From a virus, in the UHGV virus genome UHGV-1378817: a stretch of DNA of 64,000 nucleotides. One strand, 5' to 3'. The notes beneath the pieces are model-generated. The model made no database searches. It worked only from the letters and a program-made list of their open reading frames with translations, and was not told the DNA's origin. Of this stretch, positions 2,763 through 47,725 are shown in pieces. The translations under genes and the position numbers were made by a program. Within the stretch, counting starts at the first letter, position 1. The number at the start of each line of letters is the position of its first letter.

Positions 2763-2861
2763 GGTGCTAGGTGATGGAATCGAACCACCTATGTATTCAA
2801 CGACTACCTCGTCTATTTTCAGGATTAAAAATCCTCGCCCTTGCCAAAGGGCTTACCTAGC
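2763..2861 (-). tRNA. type II (long variable arm) tRNA-like gene, anticodon ambiguous
   Basis: Good acceptor stem (GCUAGGU/ACCUAGC), D-arm and T-arm (GGTTCGATTCC) plus a long variable arm, but the anticodon arm only forms a 4-bp stem with loop UUUUUAA; no encoded terminal A. Confidence 0.4.
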
Positions 2862-3426: not shown

Positions 3427-3765
3427 TTAGCTATTGCCAACAGGTTGTATTTCTGTGGTAAATGGCATAAAAGGTGCTGGTTTTTCAGCCTCTTCTACTA
3501 CCACCTCTTCCTCTTCACCAAACATCTCATCATATTCTTCCTGCATTCGGTCTGCCTTATCAAGAACATACTCTGCAATGCTTTGACGAATATTTTGTTT
3601 GGTTTTCGGGTCCAACATCAGCTCTCTTAAAACTTTGTGAGCTTCTGGAACCATCGCTATAAAAGATTCCTTCATATCAAGGATGTTCTTCTCTAGCTGA
3701 ATGGCGTTGGACTCCTCTTTCAGAGGTCTGCCTCTACGGCGACGCTTTTTAGTTGTATCCGCCAT
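3427..3765 (-). CDS. hypothetical protein, basic N-terminus and acidic C-terminus
   Basis: ORF 3427-3918 trimmed to internal Met (MADTTKKRRRRGRP...); minus-strand TTGACA-17-TAAAAT promoter and GGAGGA RBS immediately upstream. Confidence 0.45.
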   Translation of the reverse strand: MADTTKKRRRRGRPLKEESNAIQLEKNILDMKESFIAMVPEAHKVLRELMLDPKTKQNIRQSIAEYVLDKADRMQEEYDEMFGEEEEVVVEEAEKPAPFMPFTTEIQPVGNS

Positions 3766-4113
3766 GTTTCCTCCATTATCACGTGATAGGTGGATTTTAT
3801 CATAGCAAATACTGATTGTCAAGTTCGCCGCAGGGTGGTATTCCCTGCGACTTGCCCAGCGTCCTGGACCAGCAAGACCCAACAAGTGGGTTTTCCAGCT
3901 ATACCCATTACCGCACACAGGCTCGACCTTATTACAGGTTGGCTGGGGTCACATCGTCATGTGCTGGCTGCCCCTACCATTTTAAGTGTGGTGCACTATC
4001 AAGCCCTCTAAGGGGAACTCAGCCTTCTCCGAACCCTGTTTCAAAGCATCCGGAGATAAAGCCATCAAATTCATCTTTAAATTGGATATTCATCATAATA
4101 CACGAAAACAACC

Positions 4114-4356
4114 TCATTGTAAAGCACAAATAAATAAAACATACTTAATTTGTTTGTTATCAGGCTCAGGGTAGAAGTAGAAGATCTTGCTATCACCGAT
4201 CTGAACACCACCATCCCAACAGCATAGCCCATAACCCGTATTCATACAAGCTAAGTCGTTGGCAAAATCTATTGCATCATCCAGTGCACGAAATTCACCT
4301 TCATCTTCTAAATAATCCTCATTCATGGAACGAAAAACGAGCTTAACCTTAAACAT
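4114..4356 (-). CDS. hypothetical protein
   Basis: 80-aa minus-strand ORF in a gene-dense minus block. Confidence 0.35.
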   Translation of the reverse strand: MFKVKLVFRSMNEDYLEDEGEFRALDDAIDFANDLACMNTGYGLCCWDGGVQIGDSKIFYFYPEPDNKQIKYVLFICALQ

Positions 4357-4432: not shown

Positions 4433-4642
4433 TCAACAGATTCCGGCCTTATCTCGCCTGTCTGCGTATTCTTTAATCGCAACCTCCTCGGCATGGGTGA
4501 CTAAATCTTCAAAGTAACTCTCAAGCTCCTCGTCAATGTCAGGAAACCAACTCTTTTTCCTGTCAGTGTGAATCGCAGACTTGTTGAATTTATTACAGTT
4601 CTTTGCTACCGGATTGTTCATTAATCGCCCCTCAGCGTTCAT
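4433..4642 (-). CDS. hypothetical protein
   Basis: 69-aa minus-strand ORF; start region overlaps the stop of ORF 4632-5210. Confidence 0.3.
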   Translation of the reverse strand: MNAEGRLMNNPVAKNCNKFNKSAIHTDRKKSWFPDIDEELESYFEDLVTHAEEVAIKEYADRRDKAGIC

Positions 4643-5210
4643 AGTAAATCTTATTTAACATTACCTCATCCTTTGCAGAGAGAATACCGAGATATGCATC
4701 ACCGAACCTACCTGCAACAACCTCTACATGATACATAACTTCGTTAATATCGTCAAGAGTGATAACTGGATGACCGTATCTCTCTGAGTATTGTCTCAGA
4801 GTGCGATGTAGGGAATCATCATCGTAGGCAGACTTTTTAATATCACAAACACGACGAATAGCCTTGATGTCGAAAAACCCTGTGCGATACCAACCAAGAA
4901 AAAGGTTTCGTACAGTGTCAACACCTACATCAACACCGTCAAGAACCTTATCTACAAGATAGCTGTCATCCTTTGGACCTGCTTCCTTAGTTCGAATGTA
5001 GTTGCCATCTTTTCCAGGTGACAGCTCCTTCTCATCACCAACCTGAATGCCATCATTTGGCGGTGTTAACCACTTATCCGGATGCTTACGATCACGAGCG
5101 TTAGAATGATTACGCTGGAAACCTGGCTTCCACTTGAAAGTTTTCTCCATCTGTTCTTCATTCTGATAACGTTTTGCAATCTTTTCACGGTCATCTTTGC
5201 GTGGACTCAT
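4632..5210 (-). CDS. hypothetical protein
   Basis: 192-aa minus-strand ORF; no motif I recognise. Confidence 0.45.
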   Translation of the reverse strand: MSPRKDDREKIAKRYQNEEQMEKTFKWKPGFQRNHSNARDRKHPDKWLTPPNDGIQVGDEKELSPGKDGNYIRTKEAGPKDDSYLVDKVLDGVDVGVDTVRNLFLGWYRTGFFDIKAIRRVCDIKKSAYDDDSLHRTLRQYSERYGHPVITLDDINEVMYHVEVVAGRFGDAYLGILSAKDEVMLNKIYYER

Positions 5211-5713
5211 AACTACCTCCTCTTCAAGTTATAGAAAAACTCACTGTATCGCTTTGTAACGAGCTTTTCTATCAAACTGGTGCGATTGCCTTACCTGGTA
5301 TAGTTTATATAGCTGTGGAGCGATTTAGGTGCCTTCTTGTCCGTTTCCACACATAAACTTCATCCAAGCTCGCGCGGGAGACTCTCAACCGACTCCTTAC
5401 GGCGCTGGCAAGCTTTCGTCGGTGGTCCACATCAGTGCTCGGCCTTTGGCCTGCGCTATCGCTTCGCTCCCACACATGTTAACAGACCTGCATGTATGCA
5501 CTTCTGTTATTGTGTGCACCAGGGAGGCCCGGCATCTCGCCCCTCGTAGGCGAGTGCCAATGAAGGGCCGACACTACCCATAGTAAGTAATAAATTTAAA
5601 ACATGGTACTTAGGATCTAGTATATTCTACATAAGTTAAGTATATGTACTTAGTACCATAAGTACTAGATCTTTTATTTTTTATTATTTAGTTATTTTAG
5701 TTATATTCTTTAT

Positions 5714-5795
5714 GTGTCCGTATCACGGACAGTTAGTGTCCGTATTACGGGCAGATGTGTCCGCGTGACGGACAGTAGTGTCCGTATCACGGACA
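5714..5795. repeat. four tandem copies of a 17-bp palindrome TGTCCGT-N3-ACGGACA (operator- or iteron-like array)
   Basis: Copies at about 5714, 5737, 5758 and 5779; two perfect (TGTCCGTATCACGGACA), two degenerate; spacing 21-23 bp. Confidence 0.6.
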
Positions 5796-5870
5796 GTTAC
5801 TAACCTCTGTTCCATAGCGAACATAAAACATACGAATCCTTATAGTACAGATATTTAAGTTTTTACTGGT

Positions 5871-6221
5871 CTAACCAGTTGTTGACATTCGAATAACCTC
5901 TTCTGGTGGCAAAACTTTGGAAAATGTGCATCTTTTACCTCTCCCTTGTGTGGATATTTCAACCACTCCTGCACATTCTAAAGTTTTAACGCACGCTGCT
6001 GCTTTTGTTTTCTTTATCCCAACATCTGCTGCAATTTTCCTTGTGCTGGGTGTGAAGCGTGAACTTCCTCCAAGCTTATACCAGTTGTGCAGGTAGCAGT
6101 ATACGATCTTGTCATACAAGTCAAGAACAACAACCTCCCCAGTTGTGTCATTCAAAACTTTTGACATAGACAGTATTTCAAGGGGGACTTTAAGATATAG
6201 CAGCTTATCCCCATCTTTCAT
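5871..6221 (-). CDS. putative helix-turn-helix DNA-binding protein
   Basis: 116-aa ORF; C-terminal segment TPSTRKIAADVGIKKTKAAACVKTLECAGVV looks like an HTH/winged-helix; sits next to the palindrome array. Confidence 0.35.
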   Translation of the reverse strand: MKDGDKLLYLKVPLEILSMSKVLNDTTGEVVVLDLYDKIVYCYLHNWYKLGGSSRFTPSTRKIAADVGIKKTKAAACVKTLECAGVVEISTQGRGKRCTFSKVLPPEEVIRMSTTG

Positions 6222-6268
6222 ATCTCCTGATTCTCCTTGTGTGGCAATTTTCTTTAAAATAGCAGGGA

Positions 6269-6823
6269 TTACTCCCCGCTGTCAATAGCAAGACTCATTG
6301 CAATACTGTATGCCTCTTCTAATGGTAAGAGTCTACCCCACACATCCCAACCGACATCAAACTGCCTGCCAAACAACTGTTGTGTGGTTCCGTGAGCATG
6401 ACCGAACAGTTGTACTGATCCGTGAGGCTTTCTGTTCCACTTTGCAAACTGGTAATGGCTCATACAGATCAAATTCTTGTTGTGGCGAAGCTCGTAATAA
6501 TCTACAACCTCATGATAGAACTCTTTCATAATTCTGACAGTCGTCCTTGTGTCATGGTTGCCACGAACAAGAATAATATGTCCGTTCAACATATTTAGAA
6601 TATCTGGAAGTAAGTTGTTGATATTTTTATCAGTAGTGCACGCAATATCTCCCAAGTGGAACACAGTGTCTGCAGGTGACACAACAGAGTTCCACTCGGC
6701 GATGATTCCCGCATTCATACTGTCAAGATTGTGATCATACTGAGATCTGTGTTTTTGACATGAATCAAACTCCATGACCCGCTGGTGGAGAAAGTGTGTG
6801 TCGCTTGTTACAAAGTATTTCAT
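6269..6823 (-). CDS. calcineurin-like metallophosphoesterase
   Basis: Motifs SDTHF (DxH), GDI, GNHD and GHAHG in canonical order; ORF 6269-6928 trimmed to Met MKYFVTSDTHF. Confidence 0.6.
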   Translation of the reverse strand: MKYFVTSDTHFLHQRVMEFDSCQKHRSQYDHNLDSMNAGIIAEWNSVVSPADTVFHLGDIACTTDKNINNLLPDILNMLNGHIILVRGNHDTRTTVRIMKEFYHEVVDYYELRHNKNLICMSHYQFAKWNRKPHGSVQLFGHAHGTTQQLFGRQFDVGWDVWGRLLPLEEAYSIAMSLAIDSGE

Positions 6824-6830
6824 ACATTCC

Positions 6831-7241
6831 TCATTTAAGTTTAATGCAGTTTTTAAGCTGGCGTTCCATACGATCCACAACCCTGTCTGGAACATCATGA
6901 ATGCTTTTATTACCGTGTCGGTTTTCAACCACGATTACGGTATAATTATACCCATGGCTGATTGCCATGTCAACATATTCTTGCACATGTTTTTCTTTTG
7001 TAAACGTATTACTTACCACGATACGGTCGTATCCCATACGCATCATATCTTCTACGTTATCTTTGCACCATTTTGCTGCAAGTGTTACTTTACTTGCATC
7101 CCAGTTGTAATTGCCGTCATCGTCGTACCAGAACATGTCGTTCTCAAAATGTGGATACAGACCTTCTAAAGATAGCGCATTTGCCAGTGTTGATTTGCCA
7201 GACCCTGGTAGACCACGCACGATATATAGCATTTTAGACAT
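6831..7241 (-). CDS. P-loop polynucleotide 5'-kinase-like protein
   Basis: MSKMLYIVRGLPGSGKSTLANAL Walker A; overall pattern resembles the T4 Pnk kinase domain; GGAGGA RBS upstream of ATG at 7241. Confidence 0.55.
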   Translation of the reverse strand: MSKMLYIVRGLPGSGKSTLANALSLEGLYPHFENDMFWYDDDGNYNWDASKVTLAAKWCKDNVEDMMRMGYDRIVVSNTFTKEKHVQEYVDMAISHGYNYTVIVVENRHGNKSIHDVPDRVVDRMERQLKNCIKLK

Positions 7242-7341
7242 AGTAATCCTCCGTTTTAATTTCAAAGATAGTATACCTAACTGTTTTGTTAATTTCAAGT
7301 GTTGACACTAGGTTATTTGTGTGGCAGGATAGACTGACAAA

Positions 7342-8277
7342 ATGACAAATGAGGAACGTATGATGAAGTATTTTAATGCAGACGACCTAGTTGACAAAGG
7401 TCTTGTAACCAGTAGATATTACCCAGATCTTGGGTTAAAGATCTATAAATACGCCAGAAAAGTATTTTACAACAATTTATGGCATTTGTCCCCTCGTTTA
7501 CTGGAGTGCCGAGGCATTGTTGTCGGTAATGAAGGAAATGTTGTGGCATGGCCCTTCACAAAAGTGTTTAACTTGGGAGAAAACTCCACCAACCTGCCTG
7601 ACAATAAGCTTGTGACGGCGGTAGAGAAAAAGAACGGATTCCTTGGTGTGGTATCATCTCATAAAGGTGAACTATTGTTCTCAACAACCGGATCTCTTGA
7701 TTCTCCATATTGTAACCTTGCAAAGGAAACCATCCAGGAGCAATGCGGTAATTTAGATCTTATCAAGAAGGTTATGGGCAATGAAAACATGACATTCATG
7801 TTTGAAATTTGTCACCCTTCAGATCCGCATATTGTTCAGGAAGATCATGGCGCATATTTGATAGGTTGCAGGTATAATGATTCTGGAATAATGCTACCAG
7901 AGGCAGCTTTAGATGGGATTGCCAAATACCTTGGTGCAAAACGTCCTCACACTGTGCGTGAAATTCCGTTCAGCTATGCAAAAGAATTGGCTGCAGAAAC
8001 AAGAGGTGAAGGGTATATGATTCGTAAGCCTTACTATCCTTATGATCTGCAGCTGAAGATCAAGTCTCCATACTATCTGGCACGGAAGGCCGTAATGAGG
8101 GGTAAAGCTTGGAAGATTTGGGATGATGATATCTTTAAACGTGTTGACGAAGAGTTTTACGGCATGGTAAACTTCATTCGCAACAACTACACAGAGGATG
8201 TATGGAACTGCCTCCTGGAGCAGGAACGCCGTGAGATACTTGACTACTATTTCCACAACGAGGACTATATGCAATGA
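7342..8277 (+). CDS. RNA ligase (T4 Rnl1-like)
   Basis: LLECRGIVV, PFTKVFNLGEN and nucleotidyltransferase motif I lysine in VEKKNGFLGVV parallel T4 RnlA (ECRGIMF, PMEKFFNLNEN, LTKEDGSLV). True start may be ATG at 7360 (better RBS). Confidence 0.55.
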   Translation: MTNEERMMKYFNADDLVDKGLVTSRYYPDLGLKIYKYARKVFYNNLWHLSPRLLECRGIVVGNEGNVVAWPFTKVFNLGENSTNLPDNKLVTAVEKKNGFLGVVSSHKGELLFSTTGSLDSPYCNLAKETIQEQCGNLDLIKKVMGNENMTFMFEICHPSDPHIVQEDHGAYLIGCRYNDSGIMLPEAALDGIAKYLGAKRPHTVREIPFSYAKELAAETRGEGYMIRKPYYPYDLQLKIKSPYYLARKAVMRGKAWKIWDDDIFKRVDEEFYGMVNFIRNNYTEDVWNCLLEQERREILDYYFHNEDYMQ

Positions 8278-45101: not shown

Positions 45102-45317
45102 ATGAAGATAGAAATATTTGGTGGGGCTGACAACACTCGTGGCCTGATTTACCTTGAATTTGATGAATCATACCTGCCAGAGGTGTTAAATATAGACTCT
45201 GTTGCTGAGGCTTTGGGAGTAAACCCTAAAGAACTCCACTCTTGTGCTGAGATCGATGGTTGGGAAGAGACCATGAACATTGATTTCAGTGAAGTAGAGG
45301 ACGAACCGCTGGACTGA
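45102..45317 (+). CDS. small acidic protein
   Basis: MKIEIFGG... 71 aa with GGAG RBS; last gene of the plus-strand block. Confidence 0.4.
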   Translation: MKIEIFGGADNTRGLIYLEFDESYLPEVLNIDSVAEALGVNPKELHSCAEIDGWEETMNIDFSEVEDEPLD

Positions 45318-45446
45318 CACACAATTAGCTGCCCGGCTAAAGTGCTGGAAGCGCACCTATAACACATCTTTCAACTAAATTTCCTACCACCACAATCACT
45401 TACCTCCAACACATGACTGTTTGCTTGTTTAGTGAGCAGTCATGCC

Positions 45447-45474
45447 TTGACATTCTTGCCTATCCTGATAAAAT
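45447..45474 (+). promoter_or_regulatory. sigma70-like promoter reading into a GC-rich non-coding segment
   Basis: TTGACA-16 nt-TAAAAT with no ORF downstream; followed by about 270 nt of unusually GC-rich sequence ending in a G-run and T-rich stretch near 45730-45760. Confidence 0.4.
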
Positions 45475-47725
45475 TAAGTTCTTCTCTTTTCTTTTACCGA
45501 GTAATTCGGGTTTTCTGTTCTCTTCGGTTTGAAGGGGTATGGAGATACACCTGAGTGAACAGGGTGAACAACCGAACCATTGGCTATGGCATTAGCATGG
45601 CGAAGCGGACGGGTGACGAAAGAGGGGCCGGAGGACACCAGTCACTGCCATATGATATATGGGTGATAACCTGAAGAGTCTGAATAAGTGTTTAAGTACC
45701 AGTCAGAGGAAAAGGTGAATGGTAGCCGAAGGGGGAGGGGGGTTTCTTGTATCTTTAATTTGTATATTATGTATACACTTGTAAACCAATATCATCTAGA
45801 TCTGTTTACCACACAAAGTGGATAGAGACAAATATTACCTATTAAACTTGAATTATTTATAGAAAATACCACAACACCACTTAAGTCTTTGATTTTACAC
45901 ACAAATCTTACAGATATTCAACCTCCATATTTAACATACCTGTAACATATTCCATACTCTACCTGCCTGATCAATTTCCCCAACTACATCCCTCATATTT
46001 CCCCTGTCTGTACTACCCTGCCCCACCGGGAGTCCCGTCATATCTGGCTTTCCAGCAAATATCACACCCACAAATATCATGCCTGAAGAGGGTTTCATCC
46101 CATAATACCTGCCTTGCCTGAAGAGCGCTTCATACACCACGTAAATTTTTTAATTGACCTCCCCTGCCCCGCCGGAGAGGTTGGCTTTTCCCACACAGAC
46201 CTGAAGAGTCAGCCAGAAATATCTGAATAGGCCCAGTTCTACCACGATTTTGACCTGACCTACAGGAGCGCTGCCAGGCGGACGAAATGGGAATACTTCT
46301 CATTCTTATAACAATTCTCAAATATCGAGGCAGTGAGGCAAATTAATAGGCCAGGCCGTTCACACAGTGGCACAACATTTGCAACCTATCTTGTGGGGGT
46401 GAATGAGAATACCTATCATTGTGAGAACCATTATCATTACGGGCAATTTAACATAATACCCATTATGCGCACCACTGGTGATACATACAGGGATTGATAA
46501 CACGAGTTACAGTTTACGCATATAACAATCATATTTCTTACTATTTGTGTGGGATATAGTTAGCAGCCGATAGATTAGATATTGACCTGTGGACTTCCAA
46601 CCGTCTAGACGTCTAAGCGCCCACACAACAAGGCTTATACATACATTACTGAATGTAAACAGGGCCGCAAAAATGCTACCATACCAGTTTGTAAATTTTC
46701 ATGCAGCACTTGACAAAGAGGAGGAAAACTTGTCTGACACAATGTCACACAATATGACACAATAACGGCTGTTACCATTCCATATCTCACTGTTTACGCA
46801 TAGACTGTTTACGCCTGGATAGTTTACACCTTGACAGTTTACACAGATATGATAAGCCATGACATTCGTTTGCATGAAAACAATTAGCAAGTTAACAATT
46901 AACAAGTTAATAATATATGACATAATATAAAAGCAGGGCAACTATTAGAAGATCTATAGTTGCCTTGCTTGTTATGTCATGATTAACTAAATACAAGGCA
47001 ACTATGATCTGATTAATAGTTTGCAGACAAACTATCACGGGGGTGATGGTTACTGCTTTTATATTATGTCGCGACTCCGTCGCGCCATGCCATTCGTTTG
47101 CATAGTTGCCTTATTGTTACAGATAAAATAATTGTATTGTTAATTATTTCTTATCTTTCTATTAGTCATCTAATGATTCCGGTTAGTATAGTAACGTACA
47201 GTAAACATTAGACGACTAAATATTTCTATGTTTATGATAACCTATCGTGACAATTCCGGACTGTTTACGAAAAATGTTGACACCTGAGCTGATTTATGTT
47301 ATGCAATTTAAACGAATAATTATTTTATGCAGGTATTGACTATTCCGTTATTCTATGGTTGGAATAAATACTTAGCAAGCTATAGAATGGTGAGCGTACG
47401 TAAATTCTGAGATTTGTCGGCTATAGTTATACTCGATTTTTCACGTAGAACACGCTTTTTGGTTTGTGTAAGTGTATGACTTATAAAGATTTTTAGTTGT
47501 TGACAAGATATTGAAGATGTGCATCAGGTTAAATTTTGTGCAATAGCTGCATTACGTGCAATTTTGGAAGGAAAACTGGTAAAAATAGCACCGATACCAC
47601 ACAATGAAAGGTTATGCAATAGCTATTTTATATGTATATTTGTACAGTGTGCAGGATTGATGGCTCGTCAATTATTCCACTTGCCAGGTAGGGCCGTTTA
47701 TGGTAGGGGAAGAGCAGACAAAAAG

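Follow-up and report, generated by a model that had tools for sequence, protein, structure and literature searches.

A conserved palindrome array, an AT-rich stretch and a small winged-helix gene as a candidate iteron-type replication origin of rV5-like phages

Introduction

What function do four tandem palindromes serve that are embedded in a long non-coding stretch next to the gene for a small, presumably DNA-binding protein? This question is raised by a locus in a stretch of viral DNA of 64,000 nucleotides (the 64-kb window) whose source is an rV5-like myovirus of the genus Vequintavirus. A preliminary description of this DNA had left three options side by side: an operator cluster, a partition (centromere-like) site, or a set of iterons, with the product of the adjacent gene as the candidate binder.

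Few coliphages are isolated as often as those of the rV5 type, which are candidates for use in biocontrol and therapy; an origin and its origin-binding protein, once defined, would aid phage engineering and would help to explain differences in replication specificity between genera. The authors of the 2013 rV5 genome paper, who call the phage lytic, sought an origin via skew, encountered only switches that coincide with changes in the direction of transcription, and named no origin (PMC3606486). In the published literature that we searched, neither an origin nor iterons are described for rV5-like phages. The analysis reported here leads us to the view, held with modest confidence, that the palindrome array, the AT-rich stretch beside it and the small gene together constitute an iteron-type lytic replication origin module.

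Results

Four dyad-symmetric repeats in a strict phase

When up to two mismatches are allowed, the palindrome TGTCCGTNNNACGGACA (TGTCCGT-N3-ACGGACA) has exactly four matches in the 64-kb window, all located between positions 5715 and 5795, where 0.14 would be expected by chance; a count of four was reached in none of 100 shuffled sequences. The fourfold tandem occurrence that had been noted beforehand is thereby borne out. The matches carry no mismatch at 5715-5731 and 5779-5795 and one mismatch each at 5737-5753 and 5758-5774. A better description of the unit is TGTCCG-N5-CGGACA, a form that three copies match perfectly and the remaining one with a single mismatch:

5715..5731, iteron 1: TGTCCG-TATCA-CGGACA, a perfect dyad
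5737..5753, iteron 2: TGTCCG-TATTA-CGGGCA, one half-site mismatch; the perfect version is found in phage JEP1
5758..5774, iteron 3: TGTCCG-CGTGA-CGGACA
5779..5795, iteron 4: TGTCCG-TATCA-CGGACA, the same sequence as iteron 1
5714..5799, whole array: four units of 21-22 bp, about two helical turns each

From start to start, the four units are spaced by 22, 21 and 21 bp, which narrows the 21-23 bp given in the preliminary description. Since this spacing equals two helical turns, all sites come to lie on one face of the DNA, and the 11 bp between the centres of the half-sites suit a dimer that occupies successive major grooves. The repeats are themselves dyad-symmetric, and their central bases (TATCA, TATTA, CGTGA) are not poly-A. 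TGTCCG-N5-CGGACA is absent elsewhere in the 64-kb window, and in the genome of Escherichia phage APECc02 (135.4 kb) the motif, at no more than one mismatch, is restricted to the array; the search for further copies of the palindrome thus found none in the rest of either sequence.

Position of the locus in the phage genome

The 1.1 kb around the array is 99.8% identical to the corresponding DNA of APECc02, the closest complete genome, which also belongs to the genus Vequintavirus. Matches to this segment were obtained in 119 phage records, in 118 of them across at least 80% of its length; the non-coding region and the adjacent gene for a 116-aa protein occur in the same 119 records, with all gene matches at least 88% identical. 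The surroundings are arranged as follows:

Minus strand, in order: a tRNA cluster, four small ORFs, a 660-bp non-coding stretch that contains the array, the 116-aa ORF, a metallophosphoesterase gene, and a gene for a polynucleotide-kinase-like ATPase (AAA_33)
About 7300: point of divergent transcription, with an RNA ligase gene beyond it on the plus strand

In the APECc02 genome, the array is positioned at 74.80-74.88 kb, and the global minimum of the cumulative GC skew, at 73.5 kb, coincides with the divergent-transcription point 1.3 kb away. As skew tracks gene orientation and cannot tell replication from transcription, this position agrees with an origin at the array but has no power to decide the matter. 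In rV5 coordinates, 5.6-5.8 kb of the 64-kb window corresponds to about 65.0-65.3 kb, the offset being about 59,440.

An ORF-poor region of 2.2 kb at 45.3-47.5 kb holds several other repeat families together with AT-rich DNA. This region is a further candidate for the origin, whether as a second one or in place of the array, or it may serve in packaging or regulation.

The array adjoins the most AT-rich DNA of the genome

On the side that faces away from the 116-aa gene, the array is flanked by DNA of strikingly skewed composition, within which the following features were recorded:

5585..5713: candidate DNA-unwinding element, 129 bp with 19.4% GC, adjoining the array
5603-5613 / 5649-5659: inverted repeat ATGGTACTTAG/CTTAGTACCAT inside the AT-rich segment
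5614-5622 / 5663-5671: inverted repeat GATCTAGTA/TACTAGATC, interleaved with the preceding pair (5603..5671)
5668..5680, plus strand: GATCTTTTATTTT, the sole exact match to GATCTnTTnTTTT in the 64-kb window
5290..5584, minus strand: GC-rich (55%) non-coding element beside the AT-rich stretch, found in Vequintavirus only

The AT-rich flank with inverted repeats of its own, as previously described, is therefore real, and its repeats form two interleaved pairs. Positions 5585-5713 correspond to the 130-bp window with the lowest GC content of the whole 135.4-kb APECc02 genome, the next lowest having 24.6% GC. The segment contains two GATC sites and is T-rich on the plus strand beside the array. 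The sequence GATCTnTTnTTTT is the consensus of the 13-mers of E. coli oriC. No DnaA box (TTWTNCACA) was found within 8 kb of the array; such boxes are present in many, not all, iteron-type origins.

The GC-rich neighbour could be a structured RNA. A covariation test across 5287-5592 returned no compensatory pairs, the divergence between the sequences being too small, and a search of Rfam at gathering and E-value thresholds yielded tRNAs only, with no hit at the array or at the GC-rich element.

The array and the AT-rich stretch are conserved as one unit

We aligned the non-coding stretch from members of the genus whose protein is 85-100% identical to that encoded in the window. Variation is distributed very unevenly. 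Within the array, 1 of the 48 half-site columns, 0 of the 13 linker columns and 2 of the 20 columns for the central five bases are variable, and in the AT-rich stretch 8 of 130; the flanks vary more, with 18 of 75 columns from the stop codon to the array and 63 of 285 in the GC-rich neighbour. Having far fewer variable columns than the flanks, array and AT-rich stretch are under selection as one unit, and the conservation of the array in related phages, one of two points on which the preliminary description had made its interpretation depend, is evident within the genus. Conserved half-sites with looser centres are the pattern that one would predict, as judged from these alignments, for the target of a dimeric DNA binder.

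A stand-alone winged-helix protein is encoded next to the array

Two features define the neighbouring transcription unit:

5871..6221, minus strand: winged-helix gene, 116 aa, ATG start; rV5 gp075/ORF79; PHROG 12838
6256..6285, minus strand: sigma-70-like promoter, TTGACA-18-TATTTT with an extended -10 TG, at the same site as the annotated promoter P76 of rV5

The array begins 75 nt past the stop codon of this gene and hence directly on its 3' side, as had been reported. The promoter at 6285-6256 is predicted to drive the winged-helix gene in the direction of the array. As the prediction places no terminator-like site between gene and array, transcription probably continues into the array and the AT-rich stretch. 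A scan for sigma-70-type promoters revealed no site between 5200 and 6250, that is, within about 400 bp of the array, and the palindrome is not present at the gene's own promoter.

The earlier assignment of the protein as a putative HTH protein is upheld by a match to the Pfam family HTH_36, although this match is sub-threshold (22.8 bits, cut-off 25), and by structure prediction. A second sub-threshold Pfam match, to DUF6945 (24.9 bits, cut-off 28), spans the part of the protein that also matches the PDB entry 4RO3. No RepA_N, O-protein or other initiator model was hit in the Pfam search. The PHROG matches are to families described as 'replication initiation protein', PHROG 12838 being matched over its full length. 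GenBank calls the gene product a 'putative transcriptional regulator', and RefSeq, like PHROG 12838, a 'replication initiation protein'; given that this automated name is already attached to the gene, the novelty of our assignment is modest.

A sequence search of the PDB gave a single significant match, 4RO3, with an E-value of 7.4e-6 for the single protein (phmmer) and 8.5e-7 for a profile, at about 25% identity. The AlphaFold2 model, computed from an alignment of 29 sequences, is a confident single winged-helix domain (pLDDT 80.6); it replaces a model from five near-identical sequences with a pLDDT of 45. Foldseek again placed 4RO3 at the top for this model (E 1.5e-5, TM 0.67), followed by 4PQL, 4PT7, 5KBJ and 4PTA, the E-values for the staphylococcal RepA_N structures being 3.5e-3 and above. 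The entry 4RO3 represents the N-terminal domain of RepA from the Vibrio cholerae satellite PLE, an initiator of the RepA_N family, and 4PT7, 4PTA and 5KBJ are domains of S. aureus plasmid RepA proteins (RepA_N), the last of these in complex with iteron DNA (PMC7145576); 4PQL was deposited merely as 'N-terminal domain of DNA binding protein'. Structure and profile searches also report a resemblance to generic winged-helix regulators of the MarR and CodY types. With 4RO3 as the top match in both sequence and fold, and staphylococcal RepA next, the protein is most specifically akin to the DNA-binding domains of initiators. These sequence and model comparisons make it a candidate origin-binding protein, and we infer its identity as an initiator from them.

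Searches with the single protein (tblastn, a word search of 5.8 billion proteins, exhaustive HMMER) recovered almost nothing beyond the genus, and a mixed alignment was required to reach more distant homologs. The relatives that form the subfamily all measure 105-129 aa and consist of the DNA-binding domain only. By its length and its AlphaFold2 model, the Vequintavirus protein likewise lacks a C-terminal domain through which a replisome or host factors might be recruited. In remote relatives, the matches seen to 'O-like' PHROGs are only weak. Seven of the relatives in the alignment, some of them from sister genera, match the Pfam family 'wHTH-PRTase associated', a sequence match that points to a regulatory role for those sister-genus relatives. 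One relative (P0013) has a length of 194 aa.

Sister genera carry counterparts with different repeats

In the phages PVP-SE1 (Seunavirus), pEp_SNUABM_01 (Henunavirus) and Mydo (Mydovirus), the divergent-transcription junction harbours a small gene for a winged-helix protein of 105-118 aa, and the module lies at or near both this junction and the skew switch. These genes belong to PHROG 8453 and to PHROG 8102, a family that carries the description 'replication initiation protein'. Each of them, and also the corresponding gene of three metagenomic relatives, adjoins its own lineage-specific repeats in a 22-24-bp phase; those listed here have a period of 23-24 bp:

PVP-SE1: CTAATTATTCCC-N4-GGGAAT
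pEp_SNUABM_01 and Mydo: TGCTCAAATTGAGCA
Metagenomic relative L023: GGTTCATTTTGGACC; the presumed recognition helix of its protein differs

The repeats of the sister genera converge on A/T tracts, and in every case they are followed by an A-rich stretch with AGATCT motifs. A cross-genus MAFFT alignment of the AT-rich segments was poor, and we used pairwise local alignments against shuffled sequences instead. In its minus orientation, the AT-rich stretch of the window aligns with that of pEp_SNUABM_01 better than all 300 shuffles; with PVP-SE1 both orientations score about equally, and with Mydo the result is marginal.

The order of the parts, phased repeats by a winged-helix gene and then an A-rich AGATCT stretch, and the size of the proteins (about 105-125 aa) are what these modules share with that of Vequintavirus. 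They differ in the protein family (PHROG 8453 or 8102 versus 12838) and in having two or three repeats of other sequences instead of four. Judged from these sequences, the repeats change together with the protein across genera, and some of the AT-rich part appears to have been kept. For the PLEs, co-variation of the RepA_N domain with the origin has been described as that of a swappable cassette (PMC8263062), and the swapping of specificity cassettes between the sister genera mirrors this behaviour.

The layout relative to transcription is also distinct. Beyond the module of the sister genera, two strong promoters are predicted back to back, and the module resides in the approximately 200-nt 5' leader of the winged-helix gene. 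By the predicted promoters, the module is transcribed in both layouts, with the Vequintavirus gene reading toward the repeats and the sister-genus genes reading away from them.

Discussion

A candidate iteron-type origin of replication

Phased short repeats, an adjacent AT-rich element and a gene next to the repeats, the hallmarks by which iteron origins are recognized, are found together at this locus. Of the three options with which we started, the set of iterons is the one that the data favor: the neighbouring protein is initiator-like, the AT-rich stretch is the extreme of the genome, and the repeats are conserved and genome-unique.

These observations lend themselves to a straightforward model. 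Dimers of the 116-aa winged-helix protein would bind the four dyad-symmetric iterons, all on the same face of the DNA, and the DNA, bent or stressed by the complex so formed, would open more readily within the neighbouring unwinding element of 129 bp and 19% GC. The helicase-primase (gp230 in rV5, which also encodes a Pif1-like helicase, gp237) and the polymerase of the phage would then be loaded at the opened element. According to our predictions, transcripts that start at the promoter ahead of the gene extend through the module, and this transcription may contribute to its activation. From the anatomy of the module we infer four steps, namely binding, melting, the loading of the helicase and the start of replication there. 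In such a scheme, the loading of the helicase is left unexplained by a protein that has no C-terminal domain.

Alternative explanations

The most serious competitor, which we nevertheless consider unlikely, is that the winged-helix protein is a transcription regulator and that the four palindromes are its operator or a roadblock cluster. Bound there, it would block or tune read-through into the GC-rich element and the ORF at 4632-5210, or it would control an unrecognised phage promoter within the AT-rich stretch. A fold common to many regulators of the MarR, CodY and LexA types, the GenBank name of the gene product, and the position of the array within a transcribed stretch without a predicted terminator all speak for such a role. 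So do the sister genera, in which the repeats separate a strong promoter from the winged-helix gene, a layout that would fit autoregulation, and some of whose proteins match 'wHTH-PRTase associated'. Against it stands the lack of any sigma-70-like promoter within about 400 bp of the array, a finding that weakens the operator option of the preliminary description. Furthermore, neither the gene's own promoter nor any other part of the genome contains the palindrome, the closest specific relatives of the protein are initiators and not repressors, and regulation would leave unexplained why the AT-rich extreme of the genome is attached to the array and is equally conserved.

Transcription could also be an integral part of initiation. 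In this variant for the Vequintavirinae, a stand-alone DNA-binding domain, with no part to recruit a helicase, would coat the array and turn it into a roadblock that borders on the DNA most easily melted in the genome, and an RNA polymerase stalled there would leave an R-loop or a primer in the unwinding element. The polymerase would arrive via the gene in Vequintavirus and via the AT-rich leader in the sister genera, and the GC-rich element of Vequintavirus might be part of the RNA concerned. That the stand-alone domain, the roadblock array, the polymerase stall and the priming should all hold jointly strikes us as rather improbable; if true, it would be a new combination of iterons with transcriptional priming.

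It is very improbable, in our view, that the palindromes act as RNA, forming tandem stem-loops in the 3' untranslated part of the mRNA for the winged-helix protein, with a role in stability, processing or pausing. The region is predicted to be transcribed, its RNA folds far better than shuffled sequences (z -6.2), and variation falls mostly on what would be 'loop' positions; the fold score, however, follows trivially from the palindromes, and the stem changes in iteron 2 and in the relative L009 produce C-A mismatches in the sense (minus-strand) RNA. Identical stems, invariant linkers and the strict period of 21-22 bp indicate a sequence-specific DNA binder rather than generic hairpins.

There is scarcely any likelihood that the array is a partition (centromere-like) site to which the small protein binds, the last of the options raised at the outset. 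About four repeats of 20 bp are also known from plasmid centromeres, for instance parC of pSK41, and this resemblance counts for a partition function. One complete Vequintavirus genome has been filed as a circular E. coli 'plasmid'; as this sole match in the plasmid database is a whole phage genome, it does not indicate that any plasmid replicates by means of the module. No NTPase of the ParA or ParM type is encoded nearby, the neighbouring P-loop protein being the polynucleotide-kinase-like AAA_33 ATPase that is accompanied by an RNA ligase and a phosphoesterase, and the small protein is of neither the ribbon-helix-helix nor the ParB type and has a RepA_N-like winged-helix fold. The phage is described as lytic, and a search of 5,426 complete E. 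coli genomes found no copy of the AT-rich stretch with the array. With no partition NTPase, the wrong protein fold and a lytic phage, partition is unsupported.

Some pac sites are clusters of repeats with GATC, and this would be compatible with a pac site. Equally slim is the chance that the array is such a site for headful packaging of this circularly permuted genome (PMC3606486), since the terminase genes are about 4.4 kb away, with spanin and tRNA genes between, and the neighbouring protein is initiator-like and unlike small terminases.

Comparison with known systems

Returning to the preferred interpretation of the locus as an iteron-type origin, its functionally closest counterparts, by analogy, would be the origin and RepA of the PLEs and ori-lambda with its O protein. 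Gel shifts demonstrated that PLE RepA binds to a semi-palindromic repeat in the PLE origin, and deletion experiments revealed that this repeat is required for PLE replication (PMC7145576). PLE RepA is the best match of the Vequintavirus protein in sequence and fold; the PLE iterons are semi-palindromic and lie in non-coding DNA near the initiator gene, as the dyad-symmetric Vequintavirus repeats lie near the initiator-like gene, and in both systems the domain and the repeats co-vary. For its replication the PLE relies on the machinery of phage ICP1, whose DNA polymerase is related to that of rV5, being counted in the rV5 paper among its closest homologs (PMC3606486). A search for a homologous module near the ICP1 origin (at about 60 kb, mapped by sequencing coverage) gave only a marginal match, to a Rha/Ant-like protein. 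The differences are equally clear. PLE RepA has a conserved C-terminal domain that is hypothesised to recruit the replisome, whereas the Vequintavirus protein corresponds to the N-terminal domain alone, and the PLE is a satellite, whereas the Vequintavirus module belongs to a large lytic phage. In addition, the inverted sub-repeats of RepA_N iterons converge on a poly-A tract, unlike the central 5 bp of the Vequintavirus repeats; the repeats of the sister genera do converge on A/T tracts.

The RepA_N initiators of the staphylococcal plasmids pSK41 and pTZ2162 resemble the system in their winged-helix N-terminal domain, which is dimeric on iterons with inverted sub-repeats, and they are among the top fold matches; their Foldseek E-values are weaker, and the Vequintavirus protein has no Pfam RepA_N match. 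In the staphylococcal RepA_N plasmids, the origin is situated inside the rep gene, and the initiators possess a C-terminal domain.

The geometry of ori-lambda is very close overall to that of 5715-5795 plus 5585-5713: four dyad-symmetric iterons of about 18-19 bp are lined up in a row, with an AT-rich region directly beside them. Dimers of the winged-helix N-terminal domain of the lambda O protein bind these iterons, and transcription through or near the origin activates it. Ori-lambda lies inside the O gene, and the C-terminal domain of O binds the helicase loader P, whereas the Vequintavirus candidate origin is found 75 nt downstream of the gene and the protein has no C-terminal domain.

Pfam thresholds that are missed, the absent C-terminal domain and an origin outside the gene consequently keep the module from being a full member of either the PLE or the lambda family. 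Its assignment as an origin would link a phage replication module to the RepA_N-type domains of satellites (PLE RepA) and of anti-satellite nucleases (ICP1 Odn). The combination of iterons with an AT-rich element and a neighbouring initiator is in itself a textbook design; the unusual point is a protein that consists of the DNA-binding domain only, which makes helicase loading the puzzle. The module is best described as a probable iteron origin of the kind represented by PLE and lambda but with a DNA-binding-domain-only initiator, a classical design and not a new type of system.

GC-rich stretches and the leader of the winged-helix gene

Two GC-rich stretches lie in the first 6 kb of the window:

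5290-5584, minus strand, non-coding element of 55% GC, directly after the AT-rich stretch
3770-4100, second stretch of about 53% GC, between annotated small ORFs at 3431-3769 and 4114-4356

The element at 5290-5584 is single-copy and was found in no genus but Vequintavirus. It could be a structured RNA. Its predicted RNA fold reaches a z-score of -3.0, an Rfam search returned no match and a covariation test detected no covariation. In rV5, an 18-nt deletion falls within it, and some records have small ORFs annotated in it. The stretch at 3770-4100 likewise lacks an Rfam match and is mostly left without annotation in related genomes.

Where the leader transcript of the winged-helix gene is predicted to begin, the sister genera conserve a CATAGAG motif followed by a short GC hairpin (positions 2860-2900, 2815-2845 and 2655-2680 of the compared loci L013, L014 and L016, respectively), the stem of which varies in sequence from genus to genus with its pairing kept:

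Mydo, GAGTC/GACTC
PVP-SE1, GAGCC/GGCTC
pEp_SNUABM_01, CGGTG/CACCG

An ORF-poor region at a point of convergent transcription

A 2.2-kb region of the window with few ORFs (45300-47500) is situated where transcription converges, and is probably the box marked 'non-coding' in the rV5 genome paper (PMC3606486). It contains the following features:

46737-46764, ACACAATATC repeat, 2.8 copies
46792-46842, GTTTACRC four times with a 15-bp period
46879-46914, AACAATTAACAAGTT repeat, 2.4 copies
about 46936-46965, palindrome centred on AGATCT
47100-47400, low-GC DNA (30-32% GC)

Copies of AAGGCAACTAT are present in both orientations, and one pair of them makes the palindrome. The region may serve as a second origin, as a pac site or in regulation.

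A possible tRNA-repair set, a tRNA-like gene and a plasmid record

Within 6269-8277, the winged-helix gene has three neighbours, which encode a metallophosphoesterase, an AAA_33 ATPase resembling polynucleotide kinase, and an RNA ligase of the T4 Rnl1 type. As a group they look like a tRNA-repair set beside the phage tRNA cluster. One tRNA-like gene is odd:

2763-2861, minus strand, 99 nt

ARAGORN reports it as 'tRNA-???' with an anticodon of four bases, its Rfam tRNA score is just 35.5 bits, and GenBank labels vary between tRNA-OTHER and tRNA-Lys; it may be an intron-containing, suppressor-like or degenerate tRNA.

A complete Vequintavirus genome of 137,565 bp (CP057073.1; locus L024), from an E. 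coli isolate of cattle faeces, was deposited as the circular 'plasmid pRHB39-C03_2'. This record may reflect a carrier state, or phage DNA contaminating the culture.

A nuclease-fused relative of the winged-helix protein

In the metagenomic 228-aa protein P0012, a GIY-YIG nuclease domain is fused to a winged helix of the DUF6945 type, one related to the 116-aa protein of the window. Nuclease and winged-helix domains of these kinds also make up Odn, the origin-directed nuclease of phage ICP1 (PMC8263062); P0012 has both kinds of domain in common with Odn, in reversed order.
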